This document shows positions 164 to 2,751 of a stretch of DNA of 64,000 nucleotides, piece after piece. The position numbers and the translations under genes were made by a program. How positions within the stretch are numbered: the stretch's first letter is position 1; every line of letters starts with the position of its first letter. The DNA is taken from the NCBI GenBank assembly GCA_964539475.1, contig CAZIIR010000001.1, positions 2,869-66,868 on the forward strand, read 5' to 3'. The stretch comes from an uncultured Candidatus Saccharibacteria bacterium (GTDB lineage Bacteria; Patescibacteriota; Minisyncoccia; Phycocordibacterales; XYD1-FULL-46-19). A model generated the notes under the pieces. The model did no database searches and was not told the origin of the DNA. It saw only the letters and a program-made list of their open reading frames with translations.

Positions 164-355
164 ATGAAAAATACAGACCTAGTTAATATTGCACTTGAAC
201 TGCTTGAAGAAGACTGTGACACATGCGAAGGCGTTTGTCATGCTTGTGGAAATACTCAGTATGGTGTTGAGCCTGATGCTGAAAATTATGAATGCGAATC
301 TTGTGGAGAGAATCGCGTATATGGAGCACAGCAAACCTTACTTATGTTAGCATGA
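164..355 (+). CDS. small Cys-rich (zinc-ribbon-like) hypothetical protein
   Basis: ORF track. CxxC...CxxC pattern, ATGA start context and a 4-bp overlap with the next gene. Confidence 0.45.
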   Translation: MKNTDLVNIALELLEEDCDTCEGVCHACGNTQYGVEPDAENYECESCGENRVYGAQQTLLMLA

Positions 356-666
356 ACGAACAAACACTCGAAGCACTTAATAAAAGTATTAGACATTGGC
401 AAGCATACGCTGATGGCAAATGGGAAGAAGAAGGGGTTCCAGGCGTGCATAATTGTGCTCTTTGTCAATTGTTTCATCCTGAATACAATCACTCTGGTGT
501 TCTGTGCAACGGTTGTCCTGTTAGATTAAAAACAAGACTTGGAGTTTGTTGTGACACACCATGGAAAAAAGTTTGCCTTGCAATCAATGGCCATGGTATC
601 GACTCACCTCAATTCATTGAAGCGGCAAAAGAAGAACTTGAATTTCTCAAATCATTACTTCCTTAA
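352..666 (+). CDS. Cys-rich zinc-ribbon small protein, paralog A (start moved to the internal ATG)
   Basis: About 45% identical to the 2443..2751 product. Shared motifs TLEAL, SIRHW, NCALC, CNGCPV and SPxF..AA. Confidence 0.55.
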   Translation: MNEQTLEALNKSIRHWQAYADGKWEEEGVPGVHNCALCQLFHPEYNHSGVLCNGCPVRLKTRLGVCCDTPWKKVCLAINGHGIDSPQFIEAAKEELEFLKSLLP

Positions 667-671
667 CTATC

Positions 672-1046
672 ATGACAATCAAACGACTACAATGGTTAAT
701 TAAAGACAAGTATAATAAATTTGTTAGGTGGTATAATAAACCATCTAAAAGACTAATGGAGATTGGCTACGAAATCAATTCATACTACACTCAAAAACAT
801 ACTGTGGATGGTGTGTGTAATTACGCTAAAGCTCAAGAAGATGTAAGGAATTGTTGTATTACAAATCTTGAACTTAAACTTGGAAAACTTGTTGTTCACA
901 CAAGAAGGCCAGGATTATTTATAGGAAGAAAGGGAGAAAACATCGAAGGTCTTTCCAAATTTCTTAATATTCCAATTCATATTGAAGAGGTTAAGTTTTC
1001 ATGGGAAGATATTATTACGCCACTTGATTGGAGTGACGATTATTAA
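672..1046 (+). CDS. hypothetical protein with a KH-like GxxG loop (possible RNA-binding)
   Basis: The motif LFIGRKGENIEGL resembles the KH-domain IGxxGxxI signature. Confidence 0.4.
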   Translation: MTIKRLQWLIKDKYNKFVRWYNKPSKRLMEIGYEINSYYTQKHTVDGVCNYAKAQEDVRNCCITNLELKLGKLVVHTRRPGLFIGRKGENIEGLSKFLNIPIHIEEVKFSWEDIITPLDWSDDY

Positions 1047-1075
1047 TTGACAATACTACTCCTGTGTAGTATAAT
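1047..1075 (+). promoter_or_regulatory. sigma70-type promoter, perfect consensus TTGACA-N17-TATAAT
   Basis: Exact -35 and -10 hexamers with 17-nt spacing, read directly from the sequence. Confidence 0.55.
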
Positions 1076-1169
1076 AAGACCTTGCTCTAAGTAACTGTGA
1101 TTACTAAATGAGCAATTCACAAAAAACCTTAACTGGAGGATAACAATATGCGTTAGTAATATAAATATT

Positions 1170-1213
1170 AGCCTGTGCTATGTTGGGAGACGTAGCACAG
1201 GCTTCTTATCATT
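1170..1213 (+). terminator. 11-bp stem hairpin with a weak U-tract (terminator or processing hairpin)
   Basis: agcctgtgcta / tagcacaggct inverted repeat, followed by TCTTATCATT. Confidence 0.35.
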
Positions 1214-1325
1214 CAGTTCAATACATAGCATCGAGGAGGCGTTTTCTCTGTTAGAATTTATAAGGATTAGAGGATTACATACCCTTAACGTCAGTGACCT
1301 GGACTATGTATTGAACTGAGTGATG
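1207..1325 (+). promoter_or_regulatory. long-range ~21-bp helix enclosing ~75 nt in the 5' leader of gene 1371..1589. It is a candidate RNase III processing site or structured regulatory RNA
   Basis: cagttcaatacatag at 1214-1228 pairs perfectly with ctatgtattgaactg at 1304-1318, and the helix extends to about 21 bp including G-U pairs. Confidence 0.35.
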
Positions 1326-1370
1326 TGGCGGCGAGTCAATCCGACAATCTTAATTAAAGTATTAACTATC

Positions 1371-1589
1371 ATGAACACAAACTGGATTAGAAAAGAAGAG
1401 TTAAGTAAAGCGCCAGATAAAAATGGTTGGATTAAATGGACAGGTGGTTTCAATCCTGCTCCTAATAAGCTCGTTGATATTAAGTATTGTGATGGCTTTA
1501 TTCAGAGTAATGTGTCATCAAATGATCTTAGGTGGAATTGGATTCTTAATGGACAAGGTGGAGATATTGTTGAATACAAAGAGCTTTAA
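1371..1589 (+). CDS. hypothetical protein
   Basis: ORF track with the start moved to the ATG in the ACTATCATGA context. Confidence 0.5.
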   Translation: MNTNWIRKEELSKAPDKNGWIKWTGGFNPAPNKLVDIKYCDGFIQSNVSSNDLRWNWILNGQGGDIVEYKEL

Positions 1590-1593
1590 TATC

Positions 1594-1833
1594 ATGAACG
1601 CACACCTTGAAAAACGAATTGTAGAAGCTAAGGATTATAATGTAAGACGTTATTACATTAGATTGGCTGACGGTCTTTGCACTAAGTGTGGAAAGAAGCA
1701 AGATAACTTCACTACTAAGTGTGAGGCGTGTAGAGAAAAGCACTCTCGATATACGTTGAAGGCGTATAGATTGAAGAAGGGTGTTCCTTTAGATTTACCT
1801 AAACAACAAGGAAGAAAACTATGTGGGAATTAA
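1594..1833 (+). CDS. small zinc-ribbon protein (CxxC x2)
   Basis: Internal ATG of ORF 1423..1833. The motif is CTKCGKK...CEACREK. Confidence 0.5.
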   Translation: MNAHLEKRIVEAKDYNVRRYYIRLADGLCTKCGKKQDNFTTKCEACREKHSRYTLKAYRLKKGVPLDLPKQQGRKLCGN

Positions 1834-1891
1834 TTCTTTTTACACTGGCAGTGTCTCCGGTAATCTTATTAATCTGTAGCATTAAATCTAT

Positions 1892-2185
1892 ATGAAAGCT
1901 AAAGACTACGCAAAAATGATTGTTGAATGTGAGAACACAGAAGAAGCAATCAGAAATACTTTGGTTGAAATAGGAATAATGTTTGATAAAGAAACTGCTT
2001 CTCTTGTTAAAAGCAGGAATGTCAAAACAAATGAAGCTTTTAAATCTGTTCTTAATGAAATGGACCTTAAGTGGAAAGCTTTTGCTAAACTGTCTAATAA
2101 TTTGATTAATCCAGACGGGTATCGAATTATTATGAGAGAACTTCATCCAACAACCGCTGAGTTTGCTTGGCCTGCTTTAAGCTAA
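1892..2185 (+). CDS. hypothetical protein
   Basis: ORF track, co-oriented with the early block. Confidence 0.5.
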   Translation: MKAKDYAKMIVECENTEEAIRNTLVEIGIMFDKETASLVKSRNVKTNEAFKSVLNEMDLKWKAFAKLSNNLINPDGYRIIMRELHPTTAEFAWPALS

Positions 2186-2215
2186 TGAAACTAACAATTT
2201 TATTACTGTTCATTT

Positions 2216-2446
2216 GTGCTCTTGCACTATGTCTTGTATCATCACTTAAAATACTTGCGTTGCTTACTTATGAGAATCATTACTGAATTGACTAGAGGAA
2301 TGACCATTAAACAGAAAATGGAATTTAAGACAAACGCTAAGGCGTTTGTTGATCAGTTACTATACTGCTTGAGCGGTCTTAGTATTGCCTTTGTTGTTTT
2401 TGCTGGATTGCTTTTGTTAAGAATTTATTTAAAATCACTATCATGA
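2216..2446 (+). CDS. small protein with a C-terminal transmembrane helix
   Basis: Hydrophobic stretch LSGLSIAFVVFAGLLLL and an ATGA overlap with the next gene. Confidence 0.4.
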   Translation: MLLHYVLYHHLKYLRCLLMRIITELTRGMTIKQKMEFKTNAKAFVDQLLYCLSGLSIAFVVFAGLLLLRIYLKSLS

Positions 2447-2751
2447 CTACACTCGAAGCATTAGACGACTCTATTAGACACTGGAAAGAGTATGCCAAAG
2501 GCAATGGTGTATTAGAAGGATTTCCATCAGGTAATAATTGTGCATTATGTAGATTGTCTTTCTTTAAGTCTCCTGCATGCAATGGATGTCCGGTTATGGA
2601 AAAGACCGGGTATGCAGTTTGCGCTGGTTCTCCATACTCATTAGCAATTGATGCGCTTAAACTAGGATATACTTCGCCTGAGTTTATGGCAGCAGCACAA
2701 CAGATGGTGGACTTTTTAGAGGATATTAAAAATAATCCTTTACAATCGTAA
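2443..2751 (+). CDS. Cys-rich zinc-ribbon small protein, paralog B
   Basis: Paralog of 352..666. Confidence 0.55.
   Translation: MTTLEALDDSIRHWKEYAKGNGVLEGFPSGNNCALCRLSFFKSPACNGCPVMEKTGYAVCAGSPYSLAIDALKLGYTSPEFMAAAQQMVDFLEDIKNNPLQS

Follow-up and report, generated by a model that had tools for sequence, protein, structure and literature searches.

Do two small cysteine-rich proteins of a phage act together with the structured non-coding DNA that lies beside their genes? The question is raised by a 64,000-nucleotide (nt) stretch, referred to here as the window, of a contig assigned to an uncultured Candidatus Saccharibacteria bacterium (GenBank assembly GCA_964539475.1, contig CAZIIR010000001.1, positions 2,869 to 66,868). 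An initial annotation of the window described two of its genes, here called paralogs A and B, as duplicated zinc-ribbon proteins with a possible host-takeover or anti-defence role, each encoded just upstream of a structured non-coding element. We have found that A and B belong to a large, unnamed and uncurated family of predicted helical domains with five invariant cysteines (Cys5) and a signature of its own. Adjacency to RNA characterises this phage lineage and not the family; for paralog A, it does not even characterise the lineage. Coordinates of the features discussed are collected in Table 1.

The relationship between the two genes, as initially annotated, was borne out. BLASTP aligned ~100 residues of A and B at 44% identity and 59% positives (E=2e-25), and the blocks TLEAL, SIRHW, NCALC, CNGCPV and SPxFxxAA, which had been quoted as shared, are present in both proteins. 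This similarity is far beyond chance, and the two are homologous. The start codon of A is an internal ATG of a longer open reading frame (ORF; 292..666) and overlaps the upstream stop codon as ATGA; the start of B shows the same overlap. More generally, gene starts in the window lack an obvious Shine-Dalgarno sequence and often read tatcATGA. Searching all six-frame ORFs of the window with a hidden Markov model of the family (hmmsearch) returned A (E=6e-39) and B (E=3e-36) as the only two copies. Both are in the seed alignment of that model, and independent support comes from BLASTP to members outside the seed: P0029 shares 51% identity with A (E=7e-32), and for P0028 and B the figure is 48.5% (E=2e-29). 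Because these unrelated metagenomic members are as close to A and B as the two are to each other, or closer, A and B are not each other's closest relatives; they are anciently diverged copies and not recent duplicates. An orthologue of A (65% amino acid identity) was found on contig L005, which breaks off where the B gene would begin, and none was found on L002-L004. Orthologues of B were found as P0002-P0004 and on L002-L004, with 78-84% amino acid identity (82% for L002-L004). Paralog A has a 13-residue loop between its CxxC pairs (9 residues in B), a CC doublet and one extra cysteine, traits of a minority subtype in the family.

The family was delimited with a profile built from A, B and three orthologues and scored against 1.84 billion cluster representatives (50% identity level), of which 4,949 matched at E<=1e-3 and 899 at E<=1e-10. 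Aligning 239 unique single-domain members to the profile gave a signature in four parts, A-L-x2-S-I-x-[HK]-W, C-[AP]-L-C-x2-[FY], C-x-G-C-P-[VI]-x3-[TS]-G-x3-C-x2-[TS]-P-[YWF] and A-x2-E-x2-F-L-x-S-L. In these 239 members each of the five cysteines is conserved in at least 99%, P50 in 100% and W14 in 98%; in the columns of the N-terminal motif, conservation is A 90%, L 94%, S 94%, I 97% and W 98%. Both paralogs fit the cysteine pattern C-x2-C-x(4-24)-C-x2-C-P-x9-C, as well as the N-terminal part of the signature (EALNKSIRHW in A, EALDDSIRHW in B). The loop between the CxxC pairs ranges from 4 to 24 residues across the family, and the C-P-x9-C spacing is essentially fixed. Conservation falls on the cysteines and the hydrophobic core, with no catalytic-looking polar residues. 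Neither A nor B had a Pfam match at E<=1, zinc-ribbon families included, or a significant PHROG match. Among 22 family members, no Pfam (E<=0.1), NCBIfam, PHROG or PADLOC model matched the domain, and a profile search of PDB sequences found no relative. Among 20 longer members, no Pfam domain rose above noise as a fusion partner. One member, P0020, was the only one seen with a C-terminal ribbon-helix-helix (RHH) domain, a fusion compatible with a sensor or partner-binding module placed on a DNA binder.

The predicted structure does not agree with a zinc ribbon. AlphaFold2 modelled B with a predicted local distance difference test score (pLDDT) of 93.6 and a predicted template modelling score (pTM) of 0.87 as an all-alpha protein of six helices (residues 3-18, 22-25, 34-39, 50-55, 65-72 and 79-97) and no beta-strands. 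Members of the family, ~100 residues long, would share this helical bundle. A comparison of folds found no specific structural neighbour for the model. Classical zinc ribbons likewise have two CxxC pairs ~10-20 residues apart, but these sit in two beta-hairpin knuckles, whereas in the model of B both CxxC pairs stand at helix starts. The Cys4 pattern that had been taken to indicate a zinc ribbon is part of an invariant set of five. What remains of that proposal is that conserved cysteines make metal binding plausible: the five probably bind a metal. Standing at two helix N-termini and in a loop, they would most likely hold one metal centre, with a structural Zn(Cys)4 site as the default reading and an iron-sulfur (Fe-S) cluster as another possibility. 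The suggestion of nucleic-acid binding also fared poorly, as both A and B are acidic (isoelectric points 5.9 and 4.9) and the family has a median isoelectric point of 6.1 without consistent basic charge.

Members of the family are almost only viral, lying overwhelmingly on viral contigs. In IMG/VR, a pattern and tblastn scan confirmed 95 relatives, of which 80 loci were kept for the neighbour, copy-number and RNA counts given below. A hand-made degenerate DNA pattern encoding C-x-G-C-P-V-x-E-x-T-G was scanned in IMG/VR and in genomes. In IMG/VR, 32 of 34 matches were true (31 of 33 new loci, and L017, which was known to belong to the family). The genome set, 596 Gb of species-representative bacterial and archaeal genomes, gave 43 matches, only 13 of them true, namely three isolates (two Ruegeria, one Dinoroseobacter) and ten contigs of metagenome-assembled genomes (MAGs). 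Family members were seen on two archaeal-binned contigs, L103 in a Methanophagales MAG (E=1.6e-18) and L109 in a Nanoarchaeota MAG (E=1.7e-23), which suggests either archaeal viruses with the domain or binning contamination. The locus search with alignment A1 returned none in IMG/VR or metagenome contigs, and with alignment A3 none in genome contigs. Among the 50,697 deposited phage genomes of INPHARED, tblastn with B, P0012 and a Ruegeria homologue as queries gave no match, while a helicase used as a control query matched 270 records; the family is therefore mainly one of uncultivated phages.

Duplication, which had been called uncommon in compact phage genomes, proved to be a recurrent state of the Cys5 family. 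At 7 of the 80 loci, 2-4 copies occur within +/-5 kb, mostly adjacent to one another, and 15 of the 150 top representatives carry 2-4 domains on a single chain. Identity is 34-66% between co-resident copies and 34-47% between the halves of fusions, ranges into which the 44% of A and B falls. The diverged multi-copy or fused state thus recurs in ~8-10% of cases, and because it does so, the presence of two copies is typical of the family. In two of the fusions, P0023 and P0024, a generic N-terminal domain is followed by a C-terminal domain resembling A (FHP-Y, long loop; in P0023 also CC-x-TP and VCL), which may be read as a Rosetta-stone hint that different copies cooperate. Diversifying pressure, the other evolutionary claim made for the pair, was not supported by the ratio of nonsynonymous to synonymous substitution rates (dN/dS). 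Between orthologues this was 0.13-0.19 for B and 0.18-0.38 for A, indicating that both genes are under purifying and not gene-wide diversifying selection; dS between A and B is saturated. Since A is missing from L002-L004, the genes are accessory, gained and lost between close relatives. The domain is essentially a common phage one without RNA association, an outcome that the initial annotation had foreseen as telling against it, except that it is accessory and not housekeeping.

As to function, we tentatively favor, at somewhat less than even odds, the reading that A and B are small metal-stabilised accessory proteins that act through protein contacts. As small metal-stabilised modules they would engage, early in infection, a protein of the host or of the phage, and different copies would either differ in their partners or form pairs, which would explain why diverged copies are so often side by side or fused. 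This reading is drawn from the conservation pattern, the acidic to neutral charge, the patchy distribution, the habit of fusion and multiple copies, and the single RHH fusion; metal binding, the protein-binding mode and the pairing of copies are what we infer from such features of sequence. Several points weigh against it. Past probable metal binding, the mechanism is a matter of inference. The spatial clustering of the five cysteines is assumed from their positions at helix starts, and a plain structural Zn(Cys)4 site would not normally come with a fifth invariant cysteine. For the tandem fusion P0023, AlphaFold2 gave a model of lower quality (pLDDT 77, pTM 0.59), with a poorly built C-terminal half for lack of sequences aligned to it, and this model lends no structural support to pairing of the copies. 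Finally, the neighbor analysis, in which no conserved partner emerged and no neighbor family occurred in more than 6 of the 80 loci, drew on crude ORF calls and covered proteins of at least 140 amino acids.

An unlikely alternative is that the family are redox or oxygen sensors, in which the five cysteines are the ligands of a [4Fe-4S] or [2Fe-2S] cluster and the protein tunes the transcription machinery as a functional analogue of WhiB. The number of invariant cysteines, five and not four, is in keeping with such a cluster, as is the invariant C-P-[VI] after the fourth cysteine, which is like the last cysteine of ferredoxin motifs. Small size and a predicted all-helical fold are further likenesses to WhiB, and the one fusion to an RHH DNA-binding domain would suit a transcriptional role. 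WhiB-like (Wbl) proteins (PF02467) have ~80-120 residues, an all-helical fold and a metal centre on invariant cysteines, features that are also predicted for the Cys5 family, and they include phage-encoded accessory regulators of Actinobacteria and actinophages that act by protein-protein contact. They differ in cysteine spacing, C-x(14-22)-C-x2-C-x5-C in Wbl proteins as against C-x2-C-x(4-24)-C-x2-C-P-x9-C. The family also lacks the Wbl G[VI]WGG turn and has no match to PF02467 and no fold match, and its hosts are not obviously actinobacterial.

Other known proteins resemble the family in part, and phages are known to encode small cysteine-rich accessory proteins. DksA/TraR proteins (PF01258) are small and helical, have two CxxC pairs and are common in phage early or nin-type regions, but PF01258 had no match here and the arrangement of helices is different; the fifth invariant cysteine and the AL..SI..W and F-L helices of the family are not known in DksA/TraR. 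The H-x3-C-x2-C motif of ZAS anti-sigma factors is absent, the residue four positions before the first cysteine being S29 in B and glycine in A. The accessory genes of lambdoid ea and nin regions share with the family a niche by erf or bet-exo modules, small size and patchy occurrence among relatives; they are a positional class and not a homologous family, and no PHROG matches the Cys5 domain.

In a second alternative, about as unlikely as the sensor, the proteins would be accessory factors of phage recombination or replication, for example partners of Erf/RecT annealases, exonucleases, helicase or primase. Family genes do sit in the phage early or replication-recombination block. Across the 80 loci, annotated neighbors were most often Erf, RecT, YqaJ/RecE-type exonucleases, DnaB, primase, SSB and NinB. 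That no single neighbor family occurs in more than 6 of these loci counts against this reading. In the window, moreover, A and B lie 10 kb upstream of the helicases and among tiny ORFs, in the sort of region that generally holds unrelated accessory genes.

A role for A and B in binding, chaperoning or processing the RNAs next to them (1038-1382, and the array at 2752-3745) is very improbable. Both of the non-coding elements initially described do exist. Past A and one intervening gene (672..1046), a perfect promoter, TTGACA-17-TATAAT, lies at 1047-1075, followed by a terminator-like hairpin of 14-15 bp with a T-rich tail (1170-1203) and a 21-nt inverted repeat (1208-1228/1304-1324). The promoter, ~95 nt and then the hairpin with its T-rich tail make ~1076-1215 a small-RNA candidate. 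The whole element is 91-94% identical in nucleotides in L002-L005, compared with 73-88% for flanking genes (copies at L002:5120-5456, L003:3415-3739 and L005:6975-7304). The helix arms of the 21-nt repeat are invariant in the four relatives and the 75-110-nt loop between them is hypervariable, being unrelated in L003 and L005; the hairpin has one compensatory change in L005. After B comes ~1 kb with no ORF above 60 amino acids, with a GC content of ~40-52% compared with ~31-42% in flanking 200-nt windows, and with a minimum free energy better than that of 20 of 20 shuffles (z = -3.6).

In favor of an RNA role, this array lies directly 3' of B with no terminator-like site called in between. It is plausibly co-transcribed with B and may be functionally linked to it. 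In L002-L004 the adjacency is kept, the first 70 nt past the stop codon of B differ by a single substitution, and these 70 nt together with the 3' end of B are more conserved than the rest of B. The 124-residue product of the gene between A and the first element (672-1046) has a weak match to KH_2 (E=2.9e-4; 21 bits, cut-off 22); in L002 and L004 this gene is replaced by an unrelated one of 143 amino acids. Set against these points, tRNAs lie within 5 kb at 2 of the 80 family loci, no family gene occurs in the 28 IMG/VR loci (227 kb) with the 34-nt hairpin motif of the array, and L002-L004 keep the promoter, hairpin and helix without paralog A; for these reasons the link to RNA is not a property of the family. 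At the 80 loci the median gap to the next ORF is ~20 nt and none has more than 600 nt free downstream, a crude measure, as chance ORFs can mask non-coding DNA. Both proteins are acidic, and the predicted helical fold has no match to a known RNA-binding fold. The pairing of protein and RNA in the window is a positional coincidence, or at most lineage-specific. About as improbable is the idea that the Cys5 domain is a new, phage-specific metalloprotein family whose diverged copies form hetero-oligomers, and that in this lineage copy B has been co-opted to work on the co-transcribed tRNA-like array or to share its regulation; if true, the gene pair and array would form a previously undescribed protein-RNA host-takeover module.

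Table 1. Positions and descriptions of the paralogs and non-coding features in the window.
Feature	Position	Strand	Description
Paralog A	352..666	+	104-amino-acid Cys-rich protein of the predicted helical domain; 7-Cys subtype
Conserved intergenic element	1038..1382	+	sigma-70 promoter, terminator-like hairpin, 21-nt inverted repeat; link to A not supported
Paralog B	2443..2751	+	102-amino-acid Cys-rich protein of the predicted helical domain; Cys5 core C33, C36, C46, C49, C60
Non-coding array	2752..3745	+	hairpin motif copies, long hairpins, tRNA-like modules
Long hairpins	2988-3165 and 3548-3661	+	one before each tRNA-like module
tRNA-like module 1	3167-3247	+	7-bp acceptor stem, T-like arm, encoded ACCA end; homologous modules in L197 and L211
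tRNA-like module 2	3659-3738	+	predicted cloverleaf with 7-bp acceptor stem, long variable arm and GUUCGAUUC T-loop

The region after B is a modular array and not one RNA. Its tRNA-like modules are separated by an ultraconserved 34-nt hairpin motif, AGACYGAGCAACCTGCTGACAATGTGGTRGCTC, which occurs at 2953-2986 and 3515-3548 and, in degenerate form, at ~2773-2798. In this motif a 12-nt loop, UGCUGACAAUGU, caps a stem of 8 bp that contains a conserved A.G/A.A mismatch. The motif hardly varies among 28 IMG/VR stretches, and an exact 28-mer of it was found in 47 metagenome contigs (together loci L166-L240); the phages that carry it have proteins (helicase) that share only ~30% identity with their counterparts in the window. 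A short leader, AACTTAAA, adjoins the motif on its downstream side, after which many of 52 unique units have a tRNA or tRNA-like module with an encoded CCA end. A second conserved element, ATTTCGACTCAGCGGCGTGGACAGTGACACGC, then follows in a subset of units, and other units have an ORF instead. Other modules of the array are also common to unrelated contigs. The three contigs L002, L003 and L004, which are independent Logan contigs, each end exactly 284 nt past the B orthologue, inside the hairpin motif (…GAGCAACCTGCTGACAATGTGGTGG), as expected if the motif repeats in those genomes and breaks assembly.

Neither tRNA-like module of the window was called by ARAGORN. The only match of module 2 was to the tRNA-Sec model at 29.6 bits, below the gathering score of 47, and its anticodon loop, AAUGAAA, lacks U33; with a predicted cloverleaf that falls below the tRNA threshold, 'tRNA-like' is the accurate term for it. 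The 34-nt motif had no match in Rfam 15, and a string search of the literature for it returned nothing relevant. One possible role is that of a signal for processing or punctuation in phage tRNA-like arrays; that it is a boxA-like antitermination site is speculation. Three other identities were considered and rejected. For a sigma-70 promoter, the -10-like box is inconsistent, and a tRNA begins 4-9 nt after the motif. HDV-like (hepatitis delta virus-like) theta ribozymes abut tRNA 3' ends (PMC10879173), whereas the motif is at least 40 nt from upstream tRNAs and has no Rfam ribozyme match. Resemblances to a group I intron R-element and to RNase P J11/12 have no Rfam support. One of the contigs with the motif, L187, also carries a match to the type II hammerhead ribozyme above the gathering score (8813-8877, - strand; 40 bits, E=1.7e-4).

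Elsewhere in the window, two further small early ORFs encode cysteine-rich products. The ORF at 164-355 (63 amino acids) has three CxxC pairs and weak matches to the Anti-TRAP and Cas12f TNB zinc-finger models, and that at 1594-1833 (79 amino acids) has CxxC-x10-CxxC; together with 672-1046 they have a nucleic-acid-binding flavour. An ORF of 3,316 amino acids (27018-36968, - strand) had no PHROG match, and its residues 1001-2000 had no tblastn match in the 50,697 phage genomes; an N4-like phage, considered on account of this ORF, found no support in these results. Of ten other large ORFs compared with Pfam, only DHH/DHHA1 (21240-22184) matched, and megablast of the first 8 kb of the window against INPHARED found nothing. 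The phage is very far removed from those in culture.

For the pairing of protein and RNA, the main value of the result is negative, and it is the array, more than the protein pair, that merits attention. For the proteins, thousands of entries now listed as 'hypothetical proteins' would gain a name from a definition of the family, and with it a testable signature: five invariant cysteines, a helical fold and the recurrence of diverged copies, separate or fused.

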